Positions 10,030 through 57,545 of a stretch of 64,000 nt of DNA are shown in pieces. The stretch lies in assembly GCA_012628545.1 (NCBI GenBank), contig GCA_012628545.1_3035.1, one strand, 5' to 3'. Origin of the DNA: a phage. The notes under the pieces were generated by a model, which saw nothing but the letters and a program-made list of their open reading frames with translations, was not told the origin of the DNA and did no database searches. The position numbers were made by a program, and so were the translations under genes. Every line of letters begins with the position of its first letter. Within the stretch, counting starts at the first letter, position 1.

Positions 10030-10059
10030 ATAGTATCACTACCATAGCCTGTTGTAAAC
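10030..10059 (-). promoter_or_regulatory. early promoter cassette (sigma70-type)
   Basis: Minus strand GTTTAC, 18 nt spacer, TGGTAGTGATACTAT-type -10; member of the repeated cassette family. Confidence 0.5.
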
Positions 10060-10061
10060 AA

Positions 10062-10355
10062 TTATTTTTGAATTTTATCGAGCCACTTACCAAGCTTAAT
10101 CATTTCTTTAGTAGCCTTTTCCATACTTCTGAACTTAACCAATAGAGGATAGGTATCGACACCCATAACTAAACTGGTTACAAGACTGTGTTCACCCACA
10201 AGCCATAACGAATACGTTTGAATATCGAGCCCGTAATTTCTGTCTTTGTGGACCCGTACACCCATCACTTCAAATTTCTCACTAGCTTTTTCTACTGCAT
10301 CCAGGAAATCATCTTTAGTCATATTAGGCCTTAAAAGTTTTTCGCAAAAGTTCAA
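10062..10355 (-). CDS. hypothetical protein, 97 aa
   Basis: ORF in frd-to-32 spacer. Confidence 0.4.
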   Translation of the reverse strand: MNFCEKLLRPNMTKDDFLDAVEKASEKFEVMGVRVHKDRNYGLDIQTYSLWLVGEHSLVTSLVMGVDTYPLLVKFRSMEKATKEMIKLGKWLDKIQK

Positions 10356-10701
10356 TGATTTCGTCTACATTGTTTTCATCTACAATGCAGTGAATTTTTG
10401 TTACGCCAGAAACCTTGTCTTCGACTTCATCTTCAGAAGTCGGTTCTTTATACTCACGAAAACAATGAAATTCATCTTCGCAAATTTCTAAAAGTCTATC
10501 TTTGAGGTAAAAATGCTTTCCATTTGCGCATTCAATGTGTTTTACTGCTTTATATCCATTAGCGACGGAAACTTCTTTAACTTCAAACCATCCGCCATTA
10601 TCTCGAATAGCTTTAACGATTGATGAATTAGAACGTGGGCTATAATTAATAAATGTATCAATAAGTCTTGGAACAAGTTCATACTTTTTGCCAATATACA
10701 T
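10324..10701 (-). CDS. hypothetical protein, 125 aa
   Basis: ORF in frd-to-32 spacer. Confidence 0.4.
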   Translation of the reverse strand: MYIGKKYELVPRLIDTFINYSPRSNSSIVKAIRDNGGWFEVKEVSVANGYKAVKHIECANGKHFYLKDRLLEICEDEFHCFREYKEPTSEDEVEDKVSGVTKIHCIVDENNVDEIIELLRKTFKA

Positions 10702-10744
10702 TACGTTTCCTCATTTTGATAGGGGCTTGATAGCCCCTTGATAA

Positions 10745-10972
10745 TTATTGTTCAATCAGTCCCATGTAAAATTCTGCGTCTTCGGCATCCATGCCATCAC
10801 AATATTCATTAGCCATAAAGCGGGTGAGGTCTTCAAGAGGACCTTCAACAACAATTTGAATACTCCAAAATTTAGAATCTTGCACACTTGTGATACTAAG
10901 TTCAGGATAACGATTACGAATAATTTCTTCGATATATTCAAAATCAACGATGTCAATATCAACTTTAGCCAT
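10745..10972 (-). CDS. hypothetical acidic protein, about 75 aa
   Basis: Track ORF 10745..11098 includes translated promoter sequence (FHGTIQLS artefact); start placed at [11 protein letters not shown] with upstream GGAG RBS. Confidence 0.45.
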
Positions 10973-11015
10973 ATTATTTTCCTCTTTAATCATCAGCAGT
11001 ATTGCCGATAGTTGT

Positions 11016-11045
11016 ATAGTACCATGGAAGGACAAGGATGTAAAC
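11016..11045 (-). promoter_or_regulatory. early promoter cassette
   Basis: Minus strand GTTTAC-N18-TACTAT with A/T-rich UP-like tract upstream; near-identical to copies at 27366, 30999, 57516. Confidence 0.6.
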
Positions 11046-11077
11046 CATTTTGTGAAAAAAATTTTTGAAATAAAAAA

Positions 11078-11096
11078 GGGGACCCTAGAGGTCCCC
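11078..11096 (-). terminator. intrinsic terminator downstream of gene 32
   Basis: GGGGACC-CTAGA-GGTCCCC hairpin followed on the minus strand by TTTTTTATTT. Confidence 0.7.
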
Positions 11097-11118
11097 AATT
11101 AATTAGTAATATAATCTA

Positions 11119-12027
11119 TTAAAGGTCATTCAAAAGGTCATCCAGGTCCGTGTCATCAGCACTAGATGAACTGCTAGAGCTTGAGCTCATAAAATCATCT
11201 TCAGTTTTTGTATTGAAGTCATCAACATTGAATGCATCCAAATCATCAGCAACTTTATCAGCTTTCTTAGCGGCAGTTGCTGCGGCACCGCCCATCACAG
11301 CAGTTCCCATAACTTGACCGAATTTAGTGCTCAGTTCTTCAAACGATTTGAATTTATCTTTAGAAGTCATTTCAGAAAGGTCAACCATTTGTTCGAACAG
11401 TTCTTTCTGGAAAGATTCATCATCAATGTTTGGAATCGCAGATTGATTCAGGAATTTAGATTCGTCGTAGTTACTAAAACCAGAAACTTGTTTAACTTTC
11501 AGTACAAAGTTAGCACCTTCCCACGGACAAGTTACATCAACCGGAGTTTCACCCATTTCAACATCAACTGCAATCATTGCATTGATTTTATCCCAGATTT
11601 TCTTACCGAAACGGTATTTAAATACTTTACCTTCGTTTTCTGGAGCAGCTGGGTCTTTTACAACAAGAATGTTAGCCCAGTAAGAAGTTTTACGTTTAAC
11701 AAGACTGTACTCTTTATTGTCAGTGTTGTACAGATCATTTTTACTAATGTATTGACATACTGGGCAAGAATCGTAATCACCGTGGGTAGATGAACAGTTT
11801 TCAATATACCATTTACCATTTTTCTTGAAACCGTGATTTACAAGAATTGCGAACGGTGCTTGTTCATCATTTTTAGACGGAAGAAAACGAATTACTGCTT
11901 GACCGTTACCCGCATTGTCGAGTTTCAGTTTCCACTCGCCTTTATCTTCAGAAGAAAAACCACCTTTATTTCCAGCCAGTTTAGCCATTTGTGCAGCGAG
12001 TTCAGCAGTAGATTTACGTTTAAACAT
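11119..12027 (-). CDS. 32: single-stranded DNA-binding protein gp32
   Basis: 302 aa; [17 protein letters not shown]..., zinc-binding Cys/His region and acidic C-terminal tail with poly-Ser ([21 protein letters not shown]). Confidence 0.95.
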
Positions 12028-12060
12028 TTTTATTTCCTTTTAATTTAATTAACAGTTGGT

Positions 12061-12093
12061 GCTATGACGATGTATGACCTCATAGCTGGTCAG
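12061..12093 (-). promoter_or_regulatory. gene 32 autoregulatory translational operator (pseudoknot-forming leader)
   Basis: Minus-strand leader ...TGACCAGCTATGAGGTCATACATCGTCATAGCAC... followed by an unstructured A/T-rich stretch and RBS; matches the remembered gp32 mRNA pseudoknot. Confidence 0.7.
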
Positions 12094-12110
12094 TGAGATA
12101 ATTATAATCT

Positions 12111-12118
12111 ATTTATAA
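12111..12118 (-). promoter_or_regulatory. late promoter (TATAAATA on minus strand) for gene 32
   Basis: Reverse complement TATAAATA upstream of the gene 32 leader. Confidence 0.6.
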
Positions 12119-12125
12119 TAAGCAA

Positions 12126-13361: not shown

Positions 13362-13369
13362 TATTCACC

Positions 13370-14391: not shown

Positions 14392-17300
14392 ATGGCCGAG
14401 ATTAAAAGAAAGTTCAGAGCAGAAGATGGTCTGGACGCAGGTGGTGATAAAATAATCAACGTAGCTTTAGCTGATCGTACCGTAGGAACTGACGGTGTTA
14501 ACGTTGATTACTTAATTCAAGAAAACACAGTTCAACAATATGATCCAACTCGTGGATATTTAAAAGATTTTGTAATCATTTATGATAACCGCTTTTGGGC
14601 TGCTATAAATGATATTCCAAAACCAGCAGGAGCTTTTAATAGCGGACGCTGGAGAGCATTACGTACAGATGCTAACTGGATTACGGTTTCATCTGGTTCA
14701 TATCAATTAAAATCTGGTGAAGCAATTTCGGTTAACACTGCAGCTGGAAATGACATTACGTTTACTTTACCGTCTTCTCCAATTGATGGTGATACTATCA
14801 TTCTCCAAGATATTGGAGGAAAACCTGGAGTTAACCAAGTTTTAATTGTAGCTCCAGTGCAAAGTATTGTAAACTTTAGAGGTGAACAGGTACGTTCAGT
14901 ACTAATGACTCATCCAAAGTCACAGCTAGTTTTAATTTTTAGTAATCGTCTGTGGCAAATGTATGTTGCTGATTATAGTAGAGAAGCTGTAATTGTAACA
15001 CCAGCGAATACTTATCAAGCGCAATCAAATGATTTTATCGTACGTAGATTTACTTCTGCTGCACCAATTAATGTTAAACTTCCAAGATTTGCTAATCACG
15101 GCGATATTATTAATTTCGTTGATTTAGATAAACTGAATCCACTTTATCATACAATTGTTACTACATACGATGAAACGACTTCAGTACAAGAAGTTGGAAC
15201 TCATTCCATTGAAGGCCGTACATCGATTGACGGTTTCTTGATGTTTGATGATAATGAGAAATTGTGGAGATTGTTTGACGGGGATAGTAAAGCGCGTTTA
15301 CGCATTATAACGACTAATTCTAATATTCGTCCAAACGAAGAAGTTATGGTATTTGGTGCGAATAACGGAACAACCCAAACAATTGAGCTTCAGCTTCCAA
15401 CTAATATTTCTGTTGGTGATACTGTTAAAATTTCCATGAATTACATGAGAAAAGGACAAACAGTTAAAATCAAAGCTGCCGGTGAAGATAAAATTGCTTC
15501 TTCAGTTCAATTACTGCAATTCCCAAAACGCTCAGAATATCCGCCTGAAGCTGAATGGGTTACAGTCCAAGAATTAGTTTTTAACGGTGAAACTAATTAT
15601 GTTCCAGTTTTGCAACTTGCTTACATAGAAGATTCTGATGGAAAATATTGGGTTGTACAGCAAAACGTTCCAACCGTAGAAAGAGTAGACTCTTTAAATG
15701 ATTCTACTAGAGCAAGATTAGGCGTAATTGCTTTAGCTACACAAGCTCAAGCTAATGTCGATTTAGAAAATTCTCCACAAAAAGAATTAGCAATTACTCC
15801 AGAAACATTAGCTAACCGTACTGCTACAGAAACTCGTAGAGGTATCGCAAGAATAGCAACTACTGCTCAAGTGAATCAGAACACCACATTCTCTTTTGCT
15901 GATGATATTATCATCACTCCTAAAAAGCTGAATGAAAGAACTGCTACAGAAACTCGCAGAGGTGTTGCAGAAATTGCTACTCAGCAAGAAACAAACGCAG
16001 GAACAGATGATACAACCATCATTACTCCTAAAAAGCTTCAAGCTCGTCAAGGTTCTGAATCATTATCTGGTATTGTAACTTTTGTATCTACTGCAGGTGC
16101 TACTCCAGCTTCTAGCCGTGAATTAAATGGTACGAATGTTTATAATAAAAACACTAATAATTTAGTTGTTTCGCCAAAAGCTTTGGATCAGTATAAAGCT
16201 ACGCCTACTCAACAGGGTGCAGTAATTTTAGCAGTTGAAAGTGAAGTAATTGCTGGACAAAGTCAGGAAGGATGGGCAAATGCTGTTGTAACGCCAGAAA
16301 CGTTACATAAAAAGACATCAACTGATGGAAGAATTGGTTTAATTGAAATTGCTACGCAAAGTGAAGTTAATACAGGAACTGATTATACTCGTGCAGTCAC
16401 TCCTAAAACTTTAAATGATCGTAGAGCAACTGAAAGTTTAAGTGGTATAGCTGAAATTGCTACGCAAGTTGAATTCGACGCAGGCGTCGACGATACTCGT
16501 ATCTCTACGCCATTAAAAATTAAAACTAGATTTAATAGTACTGATCGTACTTCTGTTGTTGCTCTATCTGGATTAGTTGAATCAGGAACTCTCTGGGACC
16601 ATTATACCCTTAATATTCTTGAAGCAAATGAGACACAGCGTGGTACACTTCGTGTGGCTACACAAGTTGAAGCTGCTGCAGGAACATTAGATAATGTTTT
16701 AATAACTCCTAAAAAGCTTTTAGGTACTAAATCTACCGAATCGCAAGAAGGTGTTATTAAAGTTGCAACTCAGTCTGAAACTGTGACTGGAGCATCAGCA
16801 AATACTGCTGTATCTCCAAAAAATTTAAAATGGATTGTGCAGAGTGAACCTACCTGGGCAGCTACTACTGCGGTAAGAGGTTTTGTTAAAACTTCATCTG
16901 GTTCAATTACGTTCGTTGGTAATGATACAGTCGGTTCTACCCAAGATTTAGAACTGTATGAGAAAAATAGCTATGCAATATCACCATATGAATTAAACCG
17001 TGTATTAGCAAATTATTTACCGTTAAAAGCAAAAGCTGCAGATAGTAATTTATTGGATGGTCTAGATTCATCTCAGTTCATTCGTAGGGACATTGCGCAG
17101 ACAGTTAATGGTTCACTAACCTTAACCCAACAAACGAATCTGAGTGCCCCTCTTGTATCATCTAGTACTGCTGCGTTTGGTGGTTCAGTTTCGGCAAATA
17201 GTACATTAACTATTTCTAATACTGGAACGGCAACTCGTCTGATTTTTGAGAAAGGACCTCAAACTGGAACTAACCCAGCACAGACGATGACTATCAGAGT

Positions 17301-18261: not shown

Positions 18262-18269
18262 GAGGTATT

Positions 18270-27324: not shown

Positions 27325-27365
27325 TTTCTAATCTCCGTAATTCTGTATCAGTAGTTGATAGTTGT

Positions 27366-27395
27366 ATAGTACCACAGTATGCTTTGGTTGTAAAC
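27366..27395 (-). promoter_or_regulatory. early promoter cassette upstream of motA
   Basis: GTTTAC-N18-TGGTACTAT; conserved flanking GTAGTTGATAGTTGTATAGTACCAC on plus strand. Confidence 0.65.
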
Positions 27396-27428
27396 CGTTT
27401 TGTGAAAAAATTTTTGAAATAAAAAAAA

Positions 27429-27448
27429 GGGAGAGCCTCGGCTCTCCC
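27429..27448 (-). terminator. intrinsic terminator downstream of gene 52 operon
   Basis: GGGAGAGCC-TC-GGCTCTCCC hairpin followed on the minus strand by TTTTTTTT. Confidence 0.7.
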
Positions 27449-27453
27449 TAAAA

Positions 27454-30463: not shown

Positions 30464-30491
30464 TTTCTGTTCCTCCGTAGTTGATAGGGTA

Positions 30492-30521
30492 ATAGTACCA
30501 CGGAAGAACAGTCTTGTAAAC
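30492..30521 (-). promoter_or_regulatory. early promoter cassette
   Basis: GTTTAC-N18-TACTAT family member. Confidence 0.55.
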
Positions 30522-30706
30522 AACTTTTTTAAAAATATTCGTAATAAATGTGAATACCAACTACTACCGCTGAAACCTGTGCAACCCACCATGCACAAGC
30601 AATAAGTACAGAATTTAAAATTTTCATAATAACCTCATTACAAAAGTAAATGTTAAACAAATTACTGGAATACTAATTAACCAAACAAAACACCACCATA
30701 GTGAAC

Positions 30707-30970
30707 TCATAGCTCAATCTCAATGATTTCAAGATTATTTTCTTTAATAGCTTTCTTTAAATCATCGTAAATAAGAACTTCCCAAGAATTGTTTAAATCA
30801 CCATTCAACAAACGCTCTTGTTGCAATTTATCAGTAAGATACGGTTGATCTGATTCATATTTAGACAATCCCAATGAAATAAATGATGTTGCATCGTCAA
30901 TTTCAGAATATTGTACATGAACAAATTCACCTGTGATTTTATGTTTAACATAAAAGAATTTAAATTTCAT
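30707..30970 (-). CDS. hypothetical protein, 87 aa
   Basis: ORF directly downstream of an early promoter cassette (30999..31028). Confidence 0.45.
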   Translation of the reverse strand: MKFKFFYVKHKITGEFVHVQYSEIDDATSFISLGLSKYESDQPYLTDKLQQERLLNGDLNNSWEVLIYDDLKKAIKENNLEIIEIEL

Positions 30971-30998
30971 TTTCCGCTCCTCCGTAGTTGATAGTTGT

Positions 30999-31028
30999 AT
31001 AGTACCACGGTCCTTGTGGTATGTAAAC
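30999..31028 (-). promoter_or_regulatory. early promoter cassette
   Basis: GTTTAC-N18-TACTAT family member with A/T-rich upstream tract. Confidence 0.6.
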
Positions 31029-31046
31029 TGTTTTGTGAAAAAATTT

Positions 31047-31604
31047 TTAAATGGAAAGATACCATCCGTTGTAGTTGCTTTTTCTTACAACCTTACGAAG
31101 GTCTTCTCTGTCACCGATGAACTTCGGAGTGTACTGGATGACACCTGGATGAATTTCTTTAGTGTTGAATATAATTATACAGTCAGCGACTTGATGATTT
31201 AGAATGGGCCCTAGATTTATTCCAGAACCATATGGATACTCTCCGCTGCATCCTGTTGTTACCGAAATCCAACGTGAGTCAGTTTGATGTGTCTTAACTT
31301 CTACGCGAAGCCCACAGTATTTTGGATGCGCCAATACATCCCATGCATACGTGTACGGATCATCGACATCTTCTTGACCTTTATTAACATACCCGCTTAA
31401 CCAATCTGCTACAAAAAACTCTGCGTACACAGCGATACGACATCTTTCGATAACTTCTGCCTTATCCTGGTTCGGGTTTTGTTTTAAAGAGTATCTTGCT
31501 GTATCAGCAATTTTGACCTTCATTTCATTGGTTAAATCGCTGTTCGATAGAGTAAATGTCGGAATCTGAAATAGTCTCTGCAAACCCGGATTCGTTTTCT
31601 GCAT
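31047..31604 (-). CDS. denB: endonuclease IV
   Basis: 185 aa, same length and position (ndd cluster to rIIB) as T4 DenB. Confidence 0.75.
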   Translation of the reverse strand: MQKTNPGLQRLFQIPTFTLSNSDLTNEMKVKIADTARYSLKQNPNQDKAEVIERCRIAVYAEFFVADWLSGYVNKGQEDVDDPYTYAWDVLAHPKYCGLRVEVKTHQTDSRWISVTTGCSGEYPYGSGINLGPILNHQVADCIIIFNTKEIHPGVIQYTPKFIGDREDLRKVVRKSNYNGWYLSI

Positions 31605-31648
31605 TTAAACTTTCCTTTATGTCGGAATCATAATTTCTCTTAAAACAA

Positions 31649-31664
31649 AAGGGCCGAAGCCCTT
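31649..31664. terminator. GC hairpin (GGGCCGAAGCCC) with U-tracts on both sides
   Basis: AAGGGCCGAAGCCCTT with T-rich flanks in both orientations; between denB and the 64-aa ORF. Confidence 0.5.
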
Positions 31665-31667
31665 ATT

Positions 31668-31862
31668 TTATTTGAATTGTGCGATTCTTTTCTCTAAACA
31701 TTCAGCATAAGATTTCATTGAGATGAACTGTGAAAGCAGTAATTCTTGCTCAACTTCATTAATCGTTAGAAACTTTGTGCTTTCTAAAAATTTGCTCAGT
31801 GCATTAATTTTGAGCATTAATTGATCGTATTCTTCTTTTACTCGTGCTTGATAACCTAACAT
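31668..31862 (-). CDS. hypothetical protein, 64 aa
   Basis: ORF between rIIB and denB, flanked by two GGGCCGAAGCCC hairpins. Confidence 0.4.
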   Translation of the reverse strand: MLGYQARVKEEYDQLMLKINALSKFLESTKFLTINEVEQELLLSQFISMKSYAECLEKRIAQFK

Positions 31863-31880
31863 AATTTTCCTTAATATGAT

Positions 31881-31896
31881 AAGGGCCGAAGCCCTT
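31881..31896. other. GC hairpin (GGGCCGAAGCCC) overlapping rIIB stop codon
   Basis: AAGGGCCGAAGCCCTT; same cassette as 31649 and 62591. Confidence 0.45.
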
Positions 31897-32833
31897 ATTT
31901 AAATTGTTCAGTAACGTCTTCAACTACTTCGTATTGGCAGGTACGCATTTTAGCATCGTTGTAATCAATCGGAATTGATACTACATCACGTGGATGTACT
32001 TTAACTTTTACAACTCGGCTGGTTGAACTGCCAAAGTGACGAATATAAGATTTAGAACACACATGCAGACCACGAGAACAAGTTTGTGTATCATCGTCAT
32101 TCACACGAGTACGTGGCATTTTAACTACTTTACCAGGACTGTTATCAAAGGTGTTTGAGTGACAGTCAAAGTAGTTGTCACGAACTACTTTCCAAGCATA
32201 GAAGTAACCATCTTCTGTAATTTCAATATCGTTTGCTACCAAGAAATCAAAGAGTCGAGATACCGCTTTCTGGCTTGGGTTTTCCAGCAGATTTTCCAAG
32301 AACGGAAAATAAAATTCAAAGTTTTCACCTTTTTCCATCGAGTCAAGAATACGATCAACTAAACCAGATCGCAATTCAATATTTTGATAGAACAAGCTTC
32401 CACCTTCAATTCGAACATCACCGGAAATATATTTTTCAACAGCGCGGCGAACATTAATTTTTTGTGCCGCTTCTTCCAATTTATCTGCAACAAGCAGATT
32501 AAGAATTTCCTGGAAGTTTGAATGAGTATTAGGAGTTGCGTTATAAGTTACACCATCAACAGTAATTGAAATGAATTTTTTAGATGCATTCCAAATAATG
32601 TCAGATTTAGCAACTGGAGCAATAGCTACATCACTCTTAACTTCAACTGTAATGTCACCGCTAATGGTAACTTTAGGACGTTTAGCTTCTTCAGCATTTT
32701 TCAAAACACGACGGATTGTGTCAACCGATACACCTTGCCAATCAGCCAATTCCTGTTGGGTGTAATTACCACTTGAATACAGTTTGACAATTTCAGCTTG
32801 TTCGTTTTTGGTCAGGCATTTAATATTGTACAT
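31895..32833 (-). CDS. rIIB: rIIB protein
   Basis: 312 aa, directly downstream of rIIA; N-terminal region MYNIKCLTKNEQAEIVKLYSSGNYTQQELADWQGVS. Confidence 0.85.
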   Translation of the reverse strand: MYNIKCLTKNEQAEIVKLYSSGNYTQQELADWQGVSVDTIRRVLKNAEEAKRPKVTISGDITVEVKSDVAIAPVAKSDIIWNASKKFISITVDGVTYNATPNTHSNFQEILNLLVADKLEEAAQKINVRRAVEKYISGDVRIEGGSLFYQNIELRSGLVDRILDSMEKGENFEFYFPFLENLLENPSQKAVSRLFDFLVANDIEITEDGYFYAWKVVRDNYFDCHSNTFDNSPGKVVKMPRTRVNDDDTQTCSRGLHVCSKSYIRHFGSSTSRVVKVKVHPRDVVSIPIDYNDAKMRTCQYEVVEDVTEQFK

Positions 32834-35305: not shown

Positions 35306-37107
35306 TCTTTACGAAGGTCAGCATTATCTCCCATGAGCATTTCAAAAAGCTCTTTCCAATTCTCAGGAAGTTTAACAACATCATATACTGGATTTTGAAT
35401 CATCTCACGATATTCAGATTTTTCCAAAGAGCCAAGTCCCTTAATATAACGGATGCTATGTTTAGGTAGAGCATCTTTGGCACTCTCATATTCAGCGACT
35501 GTATAAAACCATTCTTGTTTTTTACCGACCTGAGCGATGATTACAGGAGTTTTGACAAAGCGAATTCGTCCTTGCTCAAACAATTCTGGCCAATTACTAA
35601 AAAATCCGAGCAGAGAAGGATAAATGCTTCCTAGACCATCATGGTCAGCATCAGTCATAATAGCAATATTGCGATAATTCAAGTTTTCAGCTTTTTCACC
35701 AAGAACTAGACCAGTGATTGCGCAAATATCAAATAGTTCTTTGTTTTTAAGCATATCGGCATATGACATACCCCAGCTATTAAGAACTTTACCGCGCAAT
35801 GGATAACCACCATGAAGTTCTTTATCGCGAACATCAATAAGATATCCGATAGCTGAATCACCCTCAGTCAAGAACAATGTAGTGTCAGCATCTTTACCGC
35901 AAAGATTCGCTTTAATATGTTTATGAACCTTAGCTTTAGAAGCCTTTTTAGCTGCTTTAGTTTCTGCTGCTTTTTCTGCCGCCAATTTACGAGCCAAAGC
36001 AGCTTCAATAATCGGCATCAGAATTGCTTCATTATTTAGAATAGCGCGTGAAATCTTTTTAGCGTCAAGTTGAATATGACTACGAATTTCGCCAAATGGA
36101 GAAGTCAAACGCTCTTTAGTTTGAGAATCAAATCGCATGTTTTTCATATCACGAACAAACATAACGATAGTCAAACATTCTTTGACACGTGCTTTAGTTA
36201 CATCAATTTTGAACTTACGTTTGATTTGTGGAATAAGGTCTTCACAAATATCATCCATAACACAGTCAATGTGATGGCCACCATTCTTAGTGTGAATGTT
36301 ATTCACGTAAGTTAATTGACGAAATCCATCCGGCGAACGACCAACCGCAATAGAACAATTTTCTTGTTCTTGAACAATAGCATGTTCATCATACTGTCGT
36401 GCATATTTCTTAAAATTACCCTGAACCTTTTTACCATTAAAGGTAAATTGAATATCAGGATAAACAACAGCAAGTGTCTGGAGACGATCTAGTGTAATGT
36501 CAAGATAAACTTGGGACAGCTCATTAGTTTCAAATGACATAAAATCAGGAATGAAAGTAACACGGGTTCCTTTCCATTTTCCAGGAATATCTTCCCATGA
36601 TTTATTTTCCATGCCGTTTGAACAACGAACTACAATATTATTTTGACCATCGCCAGTTTCACCAACAAACATCACAGAAAAAATGTTTGTCAAACTAGAA
36701 CCAACGCCATTCATACCACCGGTGACACGTTCTTTATCATCACCGAAGTTACCACCTGCTTTTGGAATAGTCCACGCAGCAACAGGACCAGGAATTTCTT
36801 CACCGGTAGGTGTTTTAACCATCGCCTGTGGAATACCACGACCGTTATCTTCAACTGTTACTTGATTATTTTTAATAGTAACATTAATTTTATTTGCGAA
36901 TTTAAACTTAGTACGAATACCTTCATCTACTGAGTTATCGATAATTTCATCAATAAGCTTAACAAGACCAGGTACATACTGAACACTTTCCCATTTACCA
37001 AACAGAAATCGCTCATGCATTTCATTAGCTGAAGAGCCAATGTACATGCCGCTACGCTTTTTGATATGTTCAATATCGCTCAGAATTTTAATTTCATTCT
37101 TAATCAT
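35290..37107 (-). CDS. 39: DNA topoisomerase II large subunit (GyrB-like ATPase + TOPRIM), uninterrupted
   Basis: 605/606 aa; GHKL ATPase motifs (DNGRGIP, GGMNGVGSS) and TOPRIM region (IAIMTDADHDGLGSIYP) in one frame; no coding gap at the DHDG/LGS junction. Confidence 0.9.
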   Translation of the reverse strand: MIKNEIKILSDIEHIKKRSGMYIGSSANEMHERFLFGKWESVQYVPGLVKLIDEIIDNSVDEGIRTKFKFANKINVTIKNNQVTVEDNGRGIPQAMVKTPTGEEIPGPVAAWTIPKAGGNFGDDKERVTGGMNGVGSSLTNIFSVMFVGETGDGQNNIVVRCSNGMENKSWEDIPGKWKGTRVTFIPDFMSFETNELSQVYLDITLDRLQTLAVVYPDIQFTFNGKKVQGNFKKYARQYDEHAIVQEQENCSIAVGRSPDGFRQLTYVNNIHTKNGGHHIDCVMDDICEDLIPQIKRKFKIDVTKARVKECLTIVMFVRDMKNMRFDSQTKERLTSPFGEIRSHIQLDAKKISRAILNNEAILMPIIEAALARKLAAEKAAETKAAKKASKAKVHKHIKANLCGKDADTTLFLTEGDSAIGYLIDVRDKELHGGYPLRGKVLNSWGMSYADMLKNKELFDICAITGLVLGEKAENLNYRNIAIMTDADHDGLGSIYPSLLGFFSNWPELFEQGRIRFVKTPVIIAQVGKKQEWFYTVAEYESAKDALPKHSIRYIKGLGSLEKSEYREMIQNPVYDVVKLPENWKELFEMLMGDNADLRKEWMSQ

Positions 37108-37176: not shown

Positions 37177-37446
37177 TTATTTAAAACGAATAGTTGAATC
37201 CTTAAAGAACAGCCCAGAACATACTGTTCCTTCTACTTTCTGCCCGGTAGGTCCAATAGCACGAAATCCAGTATGTTGGAAATCATTTTCAGAACAACCG
37301 AACCAGTTATATCCAGTGATTTCAATATTAGTAAAACCGCTTGAAGATAAAACTTTGGTTGCATTATCAGCATCAGTACATCCTACTAAAGACACTGTTA
37401 ATACTAATGCTGCAATAGAACGATTAATATATTTCATAATTTTCAC
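37177..37446 (-). CDS. predicted lipoprotein, 89 aa
   Basis: Signal peptide with lipobox LVGC (MKYINRSIAALVLTVSLVGCTD). Confidence 0.45.
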   Translation of the reverse strand: MKIMKYINRSIAALVLTVSLVGCTDADNATKVLSSSGFTNIEITGYNWFGCSENDFQHTGFRAIGPTGQKVEGTVCSGLFFKDSTIRFK

Positions 37447-37814
37447 TTAAATTTAATGGCTTGAAGAAGACTAATAATTCTCAAGCGACTTCTTTCATCT
37501 TTAACTGTAAAAGAAAGAGGGTCACCAGATTTCATAGTAATAGTACATTCAAAATCAAAATCTTCGGAAACTTCTTTGAAGAAGTCAAATTCTTCATCAT
37601 AAATTAGAACATTACTCTGACAACTATGAAGAATTTTTCCATCATTTCCAGATGCTGTACTAATCATTGTAACATTATGACCTTTCATACCTTCAATGAT
37701 AAATTCACTAGTCAATATTACAGCATTAATAGAACTATTCCTATTACTAGCAGAAAGTAGATATTTCTGTTCTTCACCTTCACGAATGCAATATTTCTTA
37801 CCGATTTTAAACAT
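37443..37814 (-). CDS. hypothetical protein, 123 aa
   Basis: ORF in 39-downstream cluster. Confidence 0.4.
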   Translation of the reverse strand: MFKIGKKYCIREGEEQKYLLSASNRNSSINAVILTSEFIIEGMKGHNVTMISTASGNDGKILHSCQSNVLIYDEEFDFFKEVSEDFDFECTITMKSGDPLSFTVKDERSRLRIISLLQAIKFK

Positions 37815-38649: not shown

Positions 38650-38931
38650 TTAATTGAACAGTGGAGCGATACGTTTCAGAAGAGTAGCAGCACCTTTAGC
38701 GAATTTTACATCATGAAAAACAGTTTCTTCTTCTGTAACAACACGAGCTTTAATGTTTTCACAATCCCAATTTTTGCGAACAATCTTCAAAAGCTGCAGT
38801 AAATCTTTACATTCAGCAATATCGATAACACATCCACGAGAATCTTCCATTATCGCACGATAACCGTAAGCCATACCATAATCATTGAAAGATTGCTCGA
38901 TGATAATTAAGTTTTCCATTTTATTCTCCAA
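38650..38931 (-). CDS. hypothetical protein, about 90 aa
   Basis: ORF downstream of a degenerate early promoter cassette. Confidence 0.4.
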   Translation of the reverse strand: MENKMENLIIIEQSFNDYGMAYGYRAIMEDSRGCVIDIAECKDLLQLLKIVRKNWDCENIKARVVTEEETVFHDVKFAKGAATLLKRIAPLFN

Positions 38932-39015
38932 GTTGTTTTCTGTATCAGTAGTTGATATTGATATAGTACCATAATCAACTACTGATGTATATAGTTTTAT
39001 GAAAAAATTTAAACT

Positions 39016-39507
39016 TTATGCATAGCGAGCTTTGCTGTAGTGTTTAATCCAACTTTCAGGAATGACTTTGTATGTTCCTAAAAATACCGCGTTGTACAGC
39101 TTAACACCGTCTTCTACCCATTGATCAGTAATGTATGCACACATAGCGCGAGTACGGTTAACAACACCTTCCTCACCTTCAGTAAATTCAAACTCATAAG
39201 GAGCAACGAACTTGATAGCTTGACCGAGTTTCCACTTAAAGTCTACACCTACATGCGAAGTATCAATCGTTTCAATTCCTTTAGCGGGAACAGCTTTCAA
39301 AAACGCAGGCTCAAGAAATTTCCATCGAACATAACCAAACTGAGGTTTAGACATTCCATCTTTAGGAATGATACGCACTTTTACTTCAGAATCTTCATCT
39401 TTAACACCATGTTTAAGCTGAATGCTTACGACTTCAACCAATTTTCCTGCTGCCTTAGAACGGGATTTATCAGATACACGAGCAATTTCACCGATATTAA
39501 TATTCAT
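39016..39507 (-). CDS. hypothetical basic protein, 163 aa (MotB-sized); shares C-terminal domain with 39581..40018
   Basis: Lys-rich N-terminus; C-terminal ITDQWVEDGVKLYNAVFLGTYKVIPESW resembles the neighbour's VTDQWIEDGVELLNVVHAGEYSVVPRSA. Confidence 0.45.
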   Translation of the reverse strand: MNINIGEIARVSDKSRSKAAGKLVEVVSIQLKHGVKDEDSEVKVRIIPKDGMSKPQFGYVRWKFLEPAFLKAVPAKGIETIDTSHVGVDFKWKLGQAIKFVAPYEFEFTEGEEGVVNRTRAMCAYITDQWVEDGVKLYNAVFLGTYKVIPESWIKHYSKARYA

Positions 39508-41783: not shown

Positions 41784-42015
41784 ATTTAATTAGTAATTTA
41801 CAGACACTTTCATCTAGTGTAATTACCGTATCTGTATTACTGTGATATGATTGTTTTTCAATTCGTTTAATTGCTAATATAGTATCACTTATAAGATAAA
41901 GCTTATGAAGGAGCTCAGCTCCTGTTACCATAACATTAAGATTATCTTGCTTATTAGTATGCTTCCTTATACCATCTATTAGACGATTTAAATATTTTGA
42001 ATTGATGTTAATCAT
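41755..42015 (-). CDS. hypothetical protein, 86 aa
   Basis: ORF directly downstream of dda. Confidence 0.4.
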   Translation of the reverse strand: MININSKYLNRLIDGIRKHTNKQDNLNVMVTGAELLHKLYLISDTILAIKRIEKQSYHSNTDTVITLDESVCKLLIKFEEAIRGNN

Positions 42016-42021
42016 ATAACC

Positions 42022-44431: not shown

Positions 44432-44461
44432 ACTATAACATTTTTACCTTAACTTGTAAAC
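44432..44461 (-). promoter_or_regulatory. early promoter
   Basis: GTTTAC-N18-TATAGT on minus strand upstream of 43651..44397. Confidence 0.5.
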
Positions 44462-44517
44462 AACTTTATGTAAAATGCTTTAAAAATTTCATGGTATAAT
44501 GAATCTAAGTCCTTCCA

Positions 44518-48213: not shown

Positions 48214-48423
48214 TTAAATTACATGATTATTTATAATAAATTCTCGCGGAACGTTAAAATACCCGATTTTAGTTAATATAACAACATCACCGTTAATAAT
48301 TACCGGAGAATAATCTTCTGGAGCATTAAATTTCCAATGGGCTCTAATATTATATCCATCAGAACCAAATGCTCGACTAGCCGGTCTCCCGGCTTTTTGC
48401 CATACATAAAAATCAAATTTCAT
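48214..48423 (-). CDS. hypothetical protein, 69 aa
   Basis: ORF between 56 and soc (where T4 carries segF the spacer here holds only small ORFs). Confidence 0.4.
   Translation of the reverse strand: MKFDFYVWQKAGRPASRAFGSDGYNIRAHWKFNAPEDYSPVIINGDVVILTKIGYFNVPREFIINNHVI
48229..48236 (-). promoter_or_regulatory. late promoter (TATAAATA on minus strand) for soc
   Basis: Reverse complement TATAAATA about 30 nt upstream of soc ATG. Confidence 0.7.
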
Positions 48424-48618
48424 TTTGAATGCTCTATAATTAATTTTAAAGCTTCTTCACTGACAAAATTTCGTCAGGACCTTCTTCTATAACCCAATCA
48501 ACCATACGAAGTTGATTAGTTAAGAGCTCACATACGAGCTCCTTGTTATAATCTTTAAATAGCTGGTCAATACGTTTCTTATGGGCTTTCTTAAGCTGAC
48601 GCTTATTTAAACGAGCCA

Positions 48619-49137
48619 TTAATAACCTCGGTCTTGACGAGCGAAGTTTTCAGCATTTTTCAGGTAATAAAGTTTAAAGATTTCTTCAGCTGACATTCCA
48701 AGAGCAATAAATTTATTCATGAAAAAATGAAATTGGTCAATAAGTTCAAATTTAATTTCAAGCTGATCTTCGGGAGATAAATCTTGAATTTTCTTGGATT
48801 GCATTTCAGAATAACGTTTCTTCCAAGGTTTCCATACAGCAGAAGCTTCTTTTTCGCCATTACTCATACCACCGAGAGAAGTATATAGCTCGCGAGTTTC
48901 GTCTGCGATATAATCGTCTTGGTTTCGCAGCCAAGCAAGAACTTCTCCTGCAGTTTCAAGTGAATCAGGATGACGATTTGTTTCTGGTTTATCATTAGCC
49001 AAACGAATCTGTAAATGCCGCTGCATGTCAAGCATAACCTGCAGTGGGTCAATATTGTGCATAATATTCTCAGCATATGCACGATTTGCTTTATCAACAC
49101 CTTCGATCAAATGAGCGCATTCATTAAAGTAAGCCAT
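48619..49137 (-). CDS. 56: dCTP pyrophosphatase gp56 (MazG-like)
   Basis: MAYFNECAHLIEGVDKANRAYAENIMHNIDP...; start at internal Met (172 aa); middle promoter upstream. Confidence 0.8.
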   Translation of the reverse strand: MAYFNECAHLIEGVDKANRAYAENIMHNIDPLQVMLDMQRHLQIRLANDKPETNRHPDSLETAGEVLAWLRNQDDYIADETRELYTSLGGMSNGEKEASAVWKPWKKRYSEMQSKKIQDLSPEDQLEIKFELIDQFHFFMNKFIALGMSAEEIFKLYYLKNAENFARQDRGY

Positions 49138-49171: not shown

Positions 49172-49197
49172 ATTATACAATAAATATATAAAGCAAT
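49172..49197 (-). promoter_or_regulatory. putative MotA-dependent middle promoter for gene 56
   Basis: Minus strand ATTGCTTTA (MotA-box-like) then 11 nt then TATAAT. Confidence 0.5.
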
Positions 49198-49208
49198 AAG
49201 GATGACAT

Positions 49209-50602: not shown

Positions 50603-50959
50603 TTAACCTTTATTCATAAAAGCATTAAAAATTTGGTCATCAATAGAAGGTGCAGCAATATTTTCTGCATCATTTAGCAAATCATTAATTTCATCAGATA
50701 GCATAACACATGTACCTTTATTTCCCGTAATTGTTACTGCGCAATTACGAACGTTTTCTTTATTAAATTTTAGGTTAATATTTTCGTAATGAAAATCCTT
50801 TAATGCTGAATATATTTTTAAAATAAAATTGTCTTTTACTACAATAAACCCAACCTCACTATTAAAACGTGGTTCATGGAAACTGTAATAAACCTTTTCA
50901 TCTATAAAATCGTATGAAATTTTTTCCATTTTTAAATATGAAAATTCAGAACTATACAT
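50603..50959 (-). CDS. hypothetical protein, 118 aa
   Basis: ORF in 61-to-41 spacer. Confidence 0.4.
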   Translation of the reverse strand: MYSSEFSYLKMEKISYDFIDEKVYYSFHEPRFNSEVGFIVVKDNFILKIYSALKDFHYENINLKFNKENVRNCAVTITGNKGTCVMLSDEINDLLNDAENIAAPSIDDQIFNAFMNKG

Positions 50960-50971
50960 ATTAACCTCTAA

Positions 50972-53253: not shown

Positions 53254-53262
53254 ACTTACTCC

Positions 53263-53625: not shown

Positions 53626-54781
53626 TTAACTGTTCGAGGTCAGTTTCTAAATCAGCTGCCGATTTACTTTTACTTTCTGGGGATTTAAATTTTTCAACTT
53701 TTGAGTTAATTAATTCATCAACTTCAGCTTCAACAATTTCATTACTATCAATAGCACCTAACTGATAAGCACGTTTAATAGCATCTCGGAATGGTTGATG
53801 CTTAAATAAAGGACCCCAGAATGTAGTGCAGTTAGTATCTTTTGCACGCCAAGATTTTTCTTCGCGAATCATCTCGCCGGTTTCTTCATCAAGAAATTCA
53901 CGAGCATACCAACCATTTTTAGGTTTTACTACAAATCCTAATTCTAGAGCCATATCTAACAATCCAGAATAAGGATCGATACCACCATCAAATTTAACAT
54001 CAATAAAGAATTTACTTTTTTCTTTAACGGTACGAGATTTTTCTACATTTAGAACAAATTGATACCCCTGAAGATCAGAACCATCTTTAATCTGGCGCTT
54101 ACCGATAATGAATACAGTATCAGCCGAATACATTACGCCTGTACCACCTGTCATCACGGTTTTACTAAACATTTCAATTGTTTCAATTGTATGGTTAACC
54201 GCAACACATGGAATATTTTTAATGCTAAAATAAGGAGTAACAATACGGAATAATGACTTCAGTGATTTAGCACGAGTCATATCTGCCACAGATTTTTCAT
54301 TCAAGGCATCTTCCGTTTCTTTCTTAGAAGCCATATTACCAATTGAGTCGATGAATACTATAACCTTTTCACCACGCTCAATAGCTTCAAGCTGATTCAC
54401 CATATCAATTTTCAGCTGTTCAACTGATTGAATTGGCGTATGAATTACACGTTCCGGGTCAACTCCCATGGATCGCAAATAAGCTGGAGTAATACCAAAT
54501 TCGCTATCATAAAATAGACAAACCGCGTCAGGATATTTGTTCAAATATGCCGCAACCATAGTCAAAGACATATTTGATTTAAAGTGTTTAGAAGGCCCTG
54601 CGAAAATAGTTAAACCAGACTGCATACCGCCATCAATCGCACCAGAAATAGCAATATTAAGCATTGGAATTTTTGTACGAATTACATCCTTTTCATTAAA
54701 GAATTTAGATGTAGTCAGTTCAGCAGTCATTTTAGAAGTGGAAGCTTTAATCAAACGGGATTTTAAATCTGCAATAGACAT
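53600..54781 (-). CDS. uvsX: UvsX recombinase (RecA/Rad51 family)
   Basis: 393 aa; Walker A GPSKHFKS, RecA-fold motifs. Confidence 0.95.
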   Translation of the reverse strand: MSIADLKSRLIKASTSKMTAELTTSKFFNEKDVIRTKIPMLNIAISGAIDGGMQSGLTIFAGPSKHFKSNMSLTMVAAYLNKYPDAVCLFYDSEFGITPAYLRSMGVDPERVIHTPIQSVEQLKIDMVNQLEAIERGEKVIVFIDSIGNMASKKETEDALNEKSVADMTRAKSLKSLFRIVTPYFSIKNIPCVAVNHTIETIEMFSKTVMTGGTGVMYSADTVFIIGKRQIKDGSDLQGYQFVLNVEKSRTVKEKSKFFIDVKFDGGIDPYSGLLDMALELGFVVKPKNGWYAREFLDEETGEMIREEKSWRAKDTNCTTFWGPLFKHQPFRDAIKRAYQLGAIDSNEIVEAEVDELINSKVEKFKSPESKSKSAADLETDLEQLSDMEEFNE

Positions 54782-54858
54782 TCATTTTTTCCATAGGCAT
54801 CATTATATTTTCCTCACTGGTTAAAGATAGAGTAATTATAACACAATAAATTTAGGCA

Positions 54859-55707
54859 TTAATCAACTGCTATTGGATGAATAGCATTAAACTTATGAAA
54901 TGCTTCTGATTTTTCTTTACGCGAAACACACATGCGAAGAACCTTTAATGGCTCGTCTTCTTCACCCAACGATTTTCGTTTTTCAATATTCGACGTTTTC
55001 CAACGAGCTTGCTCTGGAAACTCTCTATTGATTTGCTCAAGCGCTCTATTATGTTTAGAATTACTACGAATTGAACTACACCCACCAGGAGCTTGCGCTT
55101 TACCTGATACAACCAGATATTTGAACAAGGCCAAATGCGGATAACCTTGATTAATTAAATTGAGAAATGCATACATATCTTCGCACAAATCAATTTTTCC
55201 ATACCCAATTTGTTCTGTCGTAAGTTTTCCAAGGTCATACCATGTATTCGTGAATCCATATGAATTTTCACGATAATTACCCCAAGATGAAGTAATTTTA
55301 AAAATTGGTAGGCGAGCATGACCGTGATAATACCCACAATCCATGGCATCTTCGACGTATTGAATCAATTCATAGAACTGTTCATGAGTCAATTGATTGA
55401 CTTTATCCACACAACGACGGTCATCTCTTTTTCGCATTGAACTCATACGAATAGTAGTATCATCGTCAATCATCCAGATTCGTTGGCCTGCATACATATC
55501 AGTAATTGCTTTACGAGTACCGGCAATTCCGTTTACATCATCAGGAATAGTTATAATTTTAGCTCTAGACCCATAGGCATCATAATAAGCTTTTTCTTCA
55601 TGTTCACGCACTACAATATGGGGTTCATAATCAGTCGGAAACATATCAAGGGCAGAAACTGCCCCGACCCGCTGATAACTTGGAATTACGAATTGAATCA
55701 TTTCCAC
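54859..55707 (-). CDS. putative DNA (hydroxymethylcytosine) glycosyltransferase, GT-A-like, 282 aa
   Basis: N-terminal FVIPSYQR and DxD-type motif IWMIDDDTTI; occupies the locus between uvsX and gene 42 where T4 encodes beta-gt; 10-nt overlap with gene 42. Confidence 0.55.
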   Translation of the reverse strand: MEMIQFVIPSYQRVGAVSALDMFPTDYEPHIVVREHEEKAYYDAYGSRAKIITIPDDVNGIAGTRKAITDMYAGQRIWMIDDDTTIRMSSMRKRDDRRCVDKVNQLTHEQFYELIQYVEDAMDCGYYHGHARLPIFKITSSWGNYRENSYGFTNTWYDLGKLTTEQIGYGKIDLCEDMYAFLNLINQGYPHLALFKYLVVSGKAQAPGGCSSIRSNSKHNRALEQINREFPEQARWKTSNIEKRKSLGEEDEPLKVLRMCVSRKEKSEAFHKFNAIHPIAVD

Positions 55708-56438
55708 TCACCGTTATAATCTTTTTTCACAATATGAGTTTCGCCAGTATTCCACCAATGATCAACCAAGTAAAAATGACGAGAATATACATGAAGACTT
55801 CCAACATTCCATATAATAGAACCTGCTTTATACTGACGAGTTGAATCGCCTGCATTCAAATCAGATACTAATTTATCTAATACGTATTTTTGCCATGCAT
55901 AATCATTACGGAATCCGAAGACCACGTCATTTGAGCGCATGCTTACTACTGCATTGACTTTCTTATCACGAATCAGGTACTGTACTGTATTCGTACACAT
56001 GAAATCTGACATACCATCTTTATTGTAGTCAAATTGCATGGATGGACGAGTATAAATCATGATACCACGTCGAGAATCAGGATTTTGACCAAGTTCAGCT
56101 AAACACATATCATATTGAGCATAGTTATCTTCTGACCAGATAGCCCAACCATAATTCGAGTTAATTTCACCTTTAGAAGATGCTACTTGTTGCCAAATCT
56201 TCGGTGTTTCACCTGGAATATCTTTAACAAACAGACTTTGAGACTTGTACCATTCAAGTTCACGCTGAATGTATTCATCATTAAGAGCGCCAAAAATAAA
56301 GGGTTCATCTGCTACAAATGATGCGCCAATAATTTCAATAGTTTTAACACCAGTTTTATCAACTACGAAATCTTTTTCCTTTAATGCAAGCCCCAAATGA
56401 AGACGGATTTCTTCAACTGTCATAGAGTCACTAATCAT
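55698..56438 (-). CDS. 42: dCMP hydroxymethylase
   Basis: 246 aa; thymidylate-synthase-like fold motifs; length equals T4 gp42. Confidence 0.9.
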   Translation of the reverse strand: MISDSMTVEEIRLHLGLALKEKDFVVDKTGVKTIEIIGASFVADEPFIFGALNDEYIQRELEWYKSQSLFVKDIPGETPKIWQQVASSKGEINSNYGWAIWSEDNYAQYDMCLAELGQNPDSRRGIMIYTRPSMQFDYNKDGMSDFMCTNTVQYLIRDKKVNAVVSMRSNDVVFGFRNDYAWQKYVLDKLVSDLNAGDSTRQYKAGSIIWNVGSLHVYSRHFYLVDHWWNTGETHIVKKDYNGEWK

Positions 56439-56591
56439 TTAAACCTCAATTGATGCATTCATATTTAAATTGTAACAGTAATAAACCCCACCCTATGATA
56501 AGAGTTGGAATCATAGCAGGAACTGTTACGCTATAGTATATACTTATTATAACCATCAAGATTAAAAGCAACACTGTTATAATTTTGCTTT

Positions 56592-56843
56592 TCATTCTTT
56601 CTCTCTGATGATAATTACCTGATTTGGCTGTGCAGACTTTTTAGTTTCACCAGCAATTGACCAAATAAGTGTAATAAACCAACCAATAATTGACCAGTTA
56701 AACAGTAAAGATGTGAAAAAGATTCCTACTGTCGATTTTGACCCACGCATCAAAGCAATAAACCATGGAAGCATGTATATAATAATAGCCAACACACCTG
56801 AAACTAAAACCATAAAAATTGAACCTGCTACTAAAGTTTCCAT
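56592..56843 (-). CDS. imm: Imm immunity (superinfection exclusion) membrane protein
   Basis: 83 aa with two TM helices; position between 43 and 42. Confidence 0.65.
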   Translation of the reverse strand: METLVAGSIFMVLVSGVLAIIIYMLPWFIALMRGSKSTVGIFFTSLLFNWSIIGWFITLIWSIAGETKKSAQPNQVIIIREKE

Positions 56844-56850
56844 ATTTTCC

Positions 56851-57231
56851 TCACTTAGTCAAATTTTTTACGCATGAATTATAAGAATTCACTACATACT
56901 CCATCGGAGCATTTTTACCAGTACGCCATTGGTAATTATTGGCCCAATTAGCCCAAAGCTCGGCGCAGTAGTTTTCAATTTTTTCTTCGCGTGTAATTAC
57001 ATCCGAATTACGATATGCTTGAGCAGATTCATCTGGACGAATAGCTTCGTCAAAATTCGCCTGCATTTGTTCGACTGTTTGCTTTGGAGCTTCTTTATAA
57101 CACTTGACATTAGGATTATAAAATTTGCTTGAACAGTTTACAATTTTTCCTGCATCAGACTGATTTACTACCGGTCCTTGAGCTACACAACCAGTAAGAC
57201 CTAATGCAATAACCAAAATAGCGATTTTCAT
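56851..57231 (-). CDS. predicted lipoprotein, 126 aa
   Basis: Signal peptide plus lipobox LTGC (MKIAILVIALGLTGCVAQG). Confidence 0.5.
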   Translation of the reverse strand: MKIAILVIALGLTGCVAQGPVVNQSDAGKIVNCSSKFYNPNVKCYKEAPKQTVEQMQANFDEAIRPDESAQAYRNSDVITREEKIENYCAELWANWANNYQWRTGKNAPMEYVVNSYNSCVKNLTK

Positions 57232-57241
57232 AATAATTTCC

Positions 57242-57478
57242 TCAAATGCAAGTAGTAATTACTCCAGTAGTGCTTATGCAGGTATTACCCATTTGCACAC
57301 CTAAAGATCCATTTGTATTCACATGAAGATTATCATCAATTTTAACTGATATTTTACCATTAGTGTGAATAACAGTGCTAGATTCAATCACAGGTTGAGT
57401 ATCATTTTCAACACTAACAAATGGAACTGCTGCTAATGCAACTAAACAAACTGCTAAGCATCCCATAACAATTTTCAT
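57242..57478 (-). CDS. secreted/membrane protein, about 78 aa
   Basis: Track ORF includes translated promoter (FFHGTIQLS artefact); start at MKIVMGCLAVCLVALAAVPFVSVE (signal peptide). Confidence 0.45.
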   Translation of the reverse strand: MKIVMGCLAVCLVALAAVPFVSVENDTQPVIESSTVIHTNGKISVKIDDNLHVNTNGSLGVQMGNTCISTTGVITTCI

Positions 57479-57515
57479 TTTATTCTCCAAATCCGTATCA
57501 GTAGTTGATAGTTGT

Positions 57516-57545
57516 ATAGTACCATGGAAGAACATTCTTGTAAAC
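57516..57545 (-). promoter_or_regulatory. early promoter cassette
   Basis: GTTTAC-N18-TACTAT; near-identical to the motA-upstream copy. Confidence 0.6.

Follow-up and report, generated by a model that had tools for sequence, protein, structure and literature searches.

Why does almost the same sequence recur, always on the same strand, in seven intergenic spacers of a single phage genome? The question is raised by a 64,000-nucleotide (nt) stretch of phage DNA (contig GCA_012628545.1_3035.1 of GenBank assembly GCA_012628545.1; hereafter the window, meaning this whole stretch), in which we refer to the seven copies of the element as cassettes A to G. Taken as a whole, our analysis makes it very probable that the cassettes are T4-like early promoters followed by a short leader and a Shine-Dalgarno (SD) sequence, some of them with a stem-loop of the promoter-early stem-loop (PeSL) type, and that their near-identity derives from common descent combined with repeated exchange.

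Seven copies with a block-wise pattern of conservation

The element is present on the minus strand at all seven positions listed by a first-pass annotation of this DNA (10030, 11016, 27366, 30492, 30999, 38963 and 57516), each coordinate being the final base of the -10 hexamer, and its observation of at least six near-identical copies plus a degenerate seventh near 38963 was borne out. A scan of the window with the 24-mer TGGTACTATACAACTATCAACTAC / GTAGTTGATAGTTGTATAGTACCA returned three exact sites (27351-27374, 30984-31007 and 57501-57524) and, with three mismatches, cassette F at 38948-38971, the expectation from 100 shuffles being none; a 21-mer search of the minus strand also picked up cassette B (11004-11024), and an independent repeat search grouped six copies into one 73-nt family. 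The most divergent copy is cassette A (10030), which matches the 24-mer at 18 of its 24 positions.

All seven copies have a common minus-strand layout: an A/T-rich tract (reading AAAAATTTTTTCACAAAAC in B, C, E and G), GTTTACA, 13 variable bases, (G/A)TGG TACTAT, the conserved block ACAACTATCAACTAC at -6 to +9, a variable leader with an SD sequence, and an ATG. The SD sequence and the ATG lie downstream, along the direction of transcription, in every copy, and the predicted start is separated from the ATG by 19-37 nt.

Conservation across this layout is markedly uneven. Expressed as mean pairwise identity of the seven copies in a fixed-register comparison, for which the random expectation is 0.27, it reaches 1.00 in the -10 block, where TACTAT is invariant (7/7), and 0.90 in the -35 block, where six copies carry GTTTAC at -36 to -31 and cassette F has ATATAC, like its T4 orthologue. 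The TGn block follows with 0.79 (TG at -15/-14 invariant in all seven), then the -6 to +9 block with 0.74 and the A/T-rich upstream (UP) tract with 0.61 over -60 to -37; the latter is present in every copy, with positions -53, -49, -48, -44, -42 and -40 invariant. The -35/-10 spacer, at 0.33, is at chance level, and the distal leader from +10 to +30, at 0.38, is no more alike than chance.

When ten other early-type promoters of the window are compared, identity is only 0.37 in the UP tract and 0.32 at -6 to +9, so the likeness among the cassettes exceeds that of the hexamers, and the family is a distinct subset of early promoters with common features beyond them. This agrees with the earlier claim that the identity extends beyond the needs of sigma70 recognition. 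The accompanying picture of a near-identical element of ~50 bp needs a minor correction: the unit spans ~69 nt (-60 to +9), its centre is variable and its identity is not continuous. The 18-nt spacer then described is correct between GTTTAC and TACTAT, and in terms of standard hexamers the arrangement is TTTACA-17-TACTAT. The recurring peptide FHGTIQLS, encoded by TTCCATGGTACTATACAACTATCA, was found in G and fits B by sequence, while C, D and E yield variants of it.

The cassettes as T4-type early promoters

T4 early promoters have been described as a combination of UP, -35, TGn and -10 elements with 'additional regions of consensus' (Hinton 2010 review, PMC2988021), the consensus comprising GTTTAC at -36 to -31, an A-rich tract at -40 to -44, a GT-rich or TGn stretch before the -10 and TAnnnT (Nolan et al. 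2006, PMC1524935). The cassettes resemble them in the A/T-rich UP tract, in GTTTAC at the same positions, in TGn, in TAnnnT and in the extra consensus positions, and like them the copies precede early genes on the counter-clockwise strand. Outside the hexamers, the conserved blocks match, to judge by their sequence, the published additional regions. No substantive difference emerged; the window sub-family has TACTAT as its -10 versus the TATAAT-like majority, plus the common block at -6 to +9. A hexamer scan found TTTACA-17-TACTAT with TG in six copies; cassette F was not recovered by the generic scan. The fit to every T4 early-promoter sequence feature tested, together with T4 orthology upstream of early genes such as motA, supports the proposal of the first-pass annotation that these elements are early promoters.

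The T4 records NC_000866 and AF158101 contain no promoter features, bar a note on Pe133295, and no usable or open-access T4 start-site map was found in the literature. The primary lists of T4 early promoters are reportedly those of Liebig & Rueger (1989), Wilkens & Rueger, and Miller et al. (2003). Elsewhere on the minus strand, at 44432-44474, a modA homologue is preceded by two TTTACA...TAnnnT matches that overlap at an offset of 14 nt and could represent a tandem or slipped -35 region.

Based on established T4 and E. coli promoter biology, the host sigma70 RNA polymerase would bind a cassette right after DNA injection via several contacts: the A/T-rich UP tract (AAAAATTTTTTCACAAAA) would be touched by the alpha C-terminal domains, and GTTTACA, TG and TACTAT by sigma regions 4, 3 and 2, respectively. 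Transcription would then start at an A about 7 nt downstream, leading to the G-poor 5' end AUCAACUAC. The conserved blocks (UP, -35, TGn, -10, discriminator and initially transcribed sequence, ITS) would fall inside the polymerase footprint, and the spacer would be free to vary. In practical terms, the seven sites can be annotated as early promoters, and open reading frames (ORFs) that read through them, such as those with FHGTIQLS, can be discarded as artefacts. The copies would also illustrate how T-even phages capture the host polymerase within seconds of infection.

Orthologous promoters in T4 and in a sister genus

By its sequence the window belongs to a Tequatrovirus, sharing 95-97% identity across 6 kb with PhiZZ6, Kha5h and many further phages. 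It is also collinear with T4, window 4.5-20 kb corresponding to T4 140-157 kb (nrdA to gene 36), 23-35 kb to T4 159.5-168.9/0-2.8 kb and 35-64 kb to T4 4-33 kb. Each of the seven copies has a T4 orthologue at the same locus, namely frd.1, frd.3, motA, ndd.4, ndd.6, cef and imm.1 for A to G in order. Among them, the orthologue of cassette A lies at 146.1 kb, cassette C equals the T4 motA promoter, its spacer being identical as well, and the degenerate cassette F has the same degenerate counterpart at 6.6 kb. T4 carries the exact 24-mer upstream of motA, ndd.6, imm.1, nrdC.8 and e.8, and near-copies at nrdC.10, denV, cef, frd.3, ndd.4, ipI and sp. The locus-specific spacer is kept between orthologues at motA, ndd.4, ndd.6 (cassette E) and cef (cassette F), and at imm.1 (cassette G) with one substitution; it differs between the window and T4 at frd.1 (A) and frd.3 (B). 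In the GenBank record of phage fPS-65, the orthologue of cassette E is labelled 'predicted early promoter'.

These data bear on the notion that the cassettes are dispersed mobile or repetitive DNA, such as miniature inverted-repeat transposable elements or homing targets, whose likeness to promoters would be incidental. Multiple near-identical intergenic copies, some with inverted repeats inside, are what such elements would produce. The centres, however, differ between copies and are kept between orthologues, T4 has the same elements at the same loci, and all copies lie in a single orientation directly upstream of an SD sequence and an ATG. Moreover, they have no terminal inverted repeats of their own and no Rfam match, either overlapping them or anywhere else in the window. 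We consider a mobile origin highly improbable.

A different picture is offered by phage ST0 of the sister genus Mosigvirus, whose promoters orthologous to those of motA and ORF87 carry other blocks. From -16 to +9, counted by eye, the ST0 motA promoter agrees with its neighbouring paralogue at 24/24 positions and with its T4-type orthologue at only 17/24. Each genus thus seems to have its own homogenised cassette types. The early promoters at ST0 positions 67536 and 67857, one of them upstream of motA, are neighbours and nearly identical, with spacers that differ at two positions.

The same comparison touches on the idea that the extra blocks are a site for a phage factor, for example the agent of the early shut-off that occurs ~3 min post infection, or that they mark the subset of promoters stimulated by Alt-modified polymerase. 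Early shut-off persists without AsiA or ModA, and stimulation by Alt is confined to some of the early promoters whose core elements are identical (PMC2988021); the family is indeed a distinct subset. No protein or experiment is linked to the blocks, however, the sequence requires no such factor, and the blocks differ at orthologous loci of the sister genus, all of which makes this explanation improbable.

Mosaic modules and probable exchange between cassettes

If the copies descend from a common ancestor, how did their parts come to be combined as they are? The UP, spacer, ITS and leader modules form a mosaic, which is indirect evidence that cassettes have exchanged parts by crossing over in the invariant blocks. 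The window frd.3 copy has an e.8-type spacer and T4 frd.3 an nrdC.10-type one; in T4, frd.3 and nrdC.10 have UP tract and spacer in common, but not ITS and leader. The promoters of imm.1 and ndd.4 have a common spacer and differ in UP, ITS and leader, while the leader TGATACGGATTTGGAGAATAAAATG is found after three different spacers. At cassette E, the leader that follows ...ATCAACTAC is CGGAGGAGCGGAAAATG in the window versus a GATACGG type in T4 and fPS-65, with homology on both sides, and one IMG/VR phage has an ACAACT ITS at ndd.4 instead of TACCCT. Finally, every one of the four pairings of spacer types b and i with the two ITS types b and c occurs (four-type incompatibility). The module table leaves out the T4 cef entry, which was mis-registered, and an exact 24-mer scan of IMG/VR (12 loci, few T4-like contigs) served for extra module combinations only, being too small for statistics.

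A recent duplication of the whole family was also considered and rejected, because the spacers differ between paralogues. A purely functional account would dispense with recombination between copies altogether and hold that every conserved base is selected for promoter strength or escape. It is in keeping with the coincidence of the conserved blocks with polymerase contact regions next to a spacer at chance level, which a simple recent duplication would not give, and with the recurrence of TATCAAC-type start regions in other early promoters and in Mosigvirus. Against this, identity among the ten other early-type promoters of the window is low in both -6 to +9 and UP (0.32-0.37), the orthologous Mosigvirus promoters have different blocks, and the modules are combined in a reticulate manner, one locus showing a swap between the window and T4. 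Near-identity of the sub-family does not appear necessary for early-promoter function as such, because those ten promoters and the Mosigvirus orthologues lack the family-specific blocks. We regard constraint alone as doubtful. Under common descent with repeated exchange, the invariant blocks would act as short homology patches, and short conserved regulatory blocks could serve as portable linkers for small accessory genes.

Stem-loops and relation to known systems

An early promoter is combined with a stem-loop in several copies, the latter being internal in A, D and F, where the spacer and a segment past the -10 are complementary, and taking the form of a terminator-like hairpin upstream of B, C and G (Table 1). 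In the T4 orthologue of cassette A the frd.1 stem is kept with other sequence, AGGGUAGUAGUG/UACUAUUACCCU. The hairpin upstream of B follows gene 32, and a conserved terminator downstream of that gene has been reported (PMC1524935).

Such cassettes are already known from T4 and its close relatives, the shuffling hypothesis included, as PeSLs (Arbiol et al. 2010, PMC2839356; Comeau, Arbiol & Krisch 2014, PMC4122927). The PeSLs of PST and T4 are given as TTTACW-N17-TAYWAT, with an exchange example at ndd.4/.5 (PMC4122927), and this published locus is the site of cassettes D and E, the latter lying 507 bp upstream of the former in direct orientation. The window cassettes are PeSL-like in their order of AT-rich tract, early promoter, stem-loop, SD sequence and start codon, with the stem-loop upstream of, within or overlapping the promoter. 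Small ORFs that vary between close relatives, as found next to PeSLs, may be a further likeness, to judge by those behind E, F and G. On the other hand, mini-circles and terminator activity have been shown for RB49 and phi1, not for T-even cassettes. A further parallel is found at the T-even internal-protein (IP) loci, where, according to the summary in PMC2839356 of Repoila et al. 1994, blocks based on T4 early promoters flank interchangeable small genes; T4 ipI carries a member of the present family (TGATACTATTACCCTATCAACTAC), although the IP loci lie outside the window. Both the capture and the linker point have been made before for T4, PST, RB49 and phi1, and the window is therefore another example rather than a new principle.

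Observations that weigh against shuffled early promoters with stem-loops

Several results count against the combined reading of the cassettes as early promoters of PeSL type that exchange their modules. In a generic sigma70 scan the cassettes score 9/12, with the total number of hits at shuffle level; because of that level the scan is not discriminating and constitutes no evidence alone. Folding z-scores gave no significant internal hairpin for B, C, E and G, four of the seven window copies, which sets them apart from the PeSL description; E has merely a weak 7-bp stem. The mosaic patterns come from ~20 sequences, among which there are several orthologues, and from one four-type square.

The indels beside the cassettes belong here as well. 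Relative to T4, blastn placed window-specific segments directly downstream of E, F and G, and base-level alignment resolves them as T4 deletions that run from the ATG of the first ORF, with 6-8 nt of microhomology. At G there is a precise loss in T4 between two ATGAAAAT start regions, at F an internal deletion in T4 (ATGG/AAAA...ATGT/AAAA), and at E a T4 deletion between TGAAAT repeats, with the leader swap present separately. The base-level alignments rule out the cassette-edge crossovers that the blastn breakpoints might suggest, and for the same reason these indels were not made by within-cassette recombination, a further departure from the PeSL model. The comparison of cassette boundaries with indel breakpoints that the first-pass annotation had proposed thus places the breakpoints at start-codon microhomologies and not in promoter blocks. 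Its suggestion of recombination hot-spots or modular shuffling agrees with the mosaic modules and the four-type square, but not with indel breakpoints outside the conserved promoter blocks.

T4 either lacks the first ORFs behind E, F and G or has them in truncated form. All three fall into PHROG families of unknown function, and the 78-amino-acid (aa) ORF has a signal-peptide-like N-terminus; in relatives, the G ORF occurs in 322 phage records and the full E ORF in 42. Five more segments of the window contain small ORFs absent from T4 (8171-8572, 9182-9694, 37440-37811, 41791-42021 and 60442-60660), and none of these five insertions has a family cassette alongside.

A possible switch based on transcript origin

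The internal stem-loops raise a further question, that of what they do to the RNA. Their published roles are those of terminators or attenuators, or of recombination targets. The hairpins of A, D and F would form only in read-through RNA or in single-stranded DNA; that of D, whose 5' arm precedes the predicted start site, would cover the ribosome-binding site (RBS). In the promoters of cassette D, T4 nrdC.8 and T4 denV, one side of the pairing consists of the spacer and GTGGT and the other of ACTAC and the SD sequence, and for cassette D the predicted probability that the RBS is unpaired is 0.82 in its own transcript versus 0.22 in read-through RNA. Over a set of 31 T4 early promoters, pairing of the 18 nt that precede the -10 averages -12.5 kcal/mol with the promoter's own downstream segment, compared with -7.4 for non-own segments; none of 20,000 permutations reached the observed advantage (p about 5e-5), and the own downstream pairing ranks in the top three for 17 of the 31.

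We put forward, tentatively and as a proposal more likely to fail than to hold, that the spacer-to-downstream complementarity, a property of roughly every second T4-type early promoter and, within the window, of cassettes A, D and F, constitutes a transcript-origin switch. RNA from the own promoter would be devoid of the 5' arm, leaving the RBS open and, where GGAG is present, cleavable by RegB, whereas read-through RNA from upstream promoters would fold the RBS away and be translationally silent and RegB-resistant. In this regard, hairpins that sequester the RBS are known at internal T4 promoters of e, soc, 49 and I-TevI, with structure blocking RegB (PMC3014915). Cassette D, T4 nrdC.8 and denV are similar in that the 5' arm lies upstream of the internal promoter and the SD sequence would be masked only in read-through RNA; they differ from those experimentally tested late promoters in that the window promoter is early, the geometry is predicted and a minority of the copies is concerned. 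For the window, the switch is accordingly a prediction for that minority. If true, it would be a compact regulatory design that separates own from read-through transcripts, and would carry over to the early promoter class, as a built-in design rule, a type of control known from a few genes with late promoters.

The conserved stretch from +1 to +9 might, in turn, act as RNA and not as DNA, as an unstructured G-poor leader that recruits S1 and ribosomes or tunes RegB cleavage at the SD sequence. The leaders of A, F and G contain GGAGAATAAAA, which fits the RegB/S1 consensus GGAGRAYARAA (PMC1702504); ACA and A/C-rich motifs are S1 targets, and the hairpins of D and E contain ACUAC paired with GUGGU. 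This explanation seems unlikely to us, given that RegB/S1 requires no specific sequence 5' of GGAG and that many early genes have no such leader.

Feature coordinates and additional observations

Table 1. Cassettes, hairpins, neighbouring genes and differences from T4, in window coordinates.
Feature	Position	Strand	Details
Cassette A	10015..10083	minus	GTTTAC 10059-10054, TG 10038-10037, TACTAT 10035-10030, predicted +1 10023
frd.1 homologue after cassette A	ATG 10004	minus	80 aa
Hairpin of cassette A	10025..10050	minus	AGGCUAUGGUA / UACUAUAGCCU; -10 hexamer enclosed; -15.6 kcal/mol, z -4.0
Cassette B	11001..11069	minus	GTTTAC 11045-11040, TACTAT 11021-11016, predicted +1 11009
frd.3 homologue after cassette B	ATG 10972	minus	75 aa
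Intrinsic-terminator-like hairpin after gene 32	11078..11096	minus	GGGGACC-TCT-AGGGTCCCC plus T-run; adjoins UP tract of cassette B
Cassette C, motA promoter	27351..27419	minus	GTTTAC 27395-27390, TACTAT 27371-27366, predicted +1 27359
motA after cassette C	ATG 27324	minus	SD = GGAG
Terminator-like hairpin plus T-run	27428..27449	minus	directly upstream of cassette C
Cassette D, ndd.4 promoter	30477..30545	minus	TACTAT 30497-30492, predicted +1 30485, ITS variant TACCCTATCAACTAC
ndd.4 after cassette D	ATG 30463	minus	37 aa
15-bp hairpin of cassette D	30467..30511	minus	spacer + GTGGT pairs with ACTAC + SD (GGAGGAACAG); -22.7 kcal/mol, z -5.9
Cassette E	30984..31052	minus	between denB and 87-aa ORF; TACTAT 31004-30999, predicted +1 30992, ATG 30970
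First ORF after cassette E, before ndd.6	30707-30970	minus	87 aa; phrog_2390
Cassette F, degenerate	38948..39016	minus	-35 = ATATAC, TGG-TACTAT intact (38968-38963), predicted +1 38956
First ORF after cassette F, before cef	38650-38919 (ATG 38919)	minus	89 aa; phrog_3720
13-bp inverted repeat of cassette F	38944..38986	minus	ATCAGTAGTTGAT / ATCAACTACTGAT; -10 enclosed; -20.2 kcal/mol, z -4.6
Cassette G, downstream of gene 43	57501..57569	minus	TACTAT 57521-57516, predicted +1 57509
First ORF after cassette G, then imm.1	57242-57478 (ATG 57478)	minus	78 aa, signal-peptide-like; phrog_4189
Terminator-like hairpin after gene 43	57633..57650	minus	~90 nt upstream of cassette G -35
Differences from T4 (endonuclease genes and others, see text)	7618/7619; 12090-12124; 35626-35689; 48236-48655; 49178-49198; 50649-50970

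Hairpins of another kind recur at 31646-31677, 31866-31906, 60416-60447 and 62586-62617, where GGGCCGAAGCCC is followed by a T-rich tail (repeat families D6 and D12). They are probably intrinsic terminators, and they resemble the GGGC...GCCC motifs that have been tied to T4 deletions (discussion of PMC2839356).

Compared with T4, the window is without the td intron and I-TevI, segG, the mobA/gene 60-39 split region and dam, and segF and 61.2 are replaced. With the td intron and I-TevI, segG, the mobA region and segF missing or replaced, most T4 mobile endonuclease genes of this stretch are absent. Where T4 has segA and beta-gt, a 280-aa ORF on the minus strand (54770-55715) matches beta-glucosyl-HMC-alpha-glucosyltransferase (phrog_842, E 6e-89), which suggests DNA glucosylation of the T2/T6 type rather than the T4 type. 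Finally, the gene 34 (proximal tail fibre) homologue on the plus strand contains, at 15793-16718, internal direct repeats of ~30-70 nt (families D3, D4 and D7).

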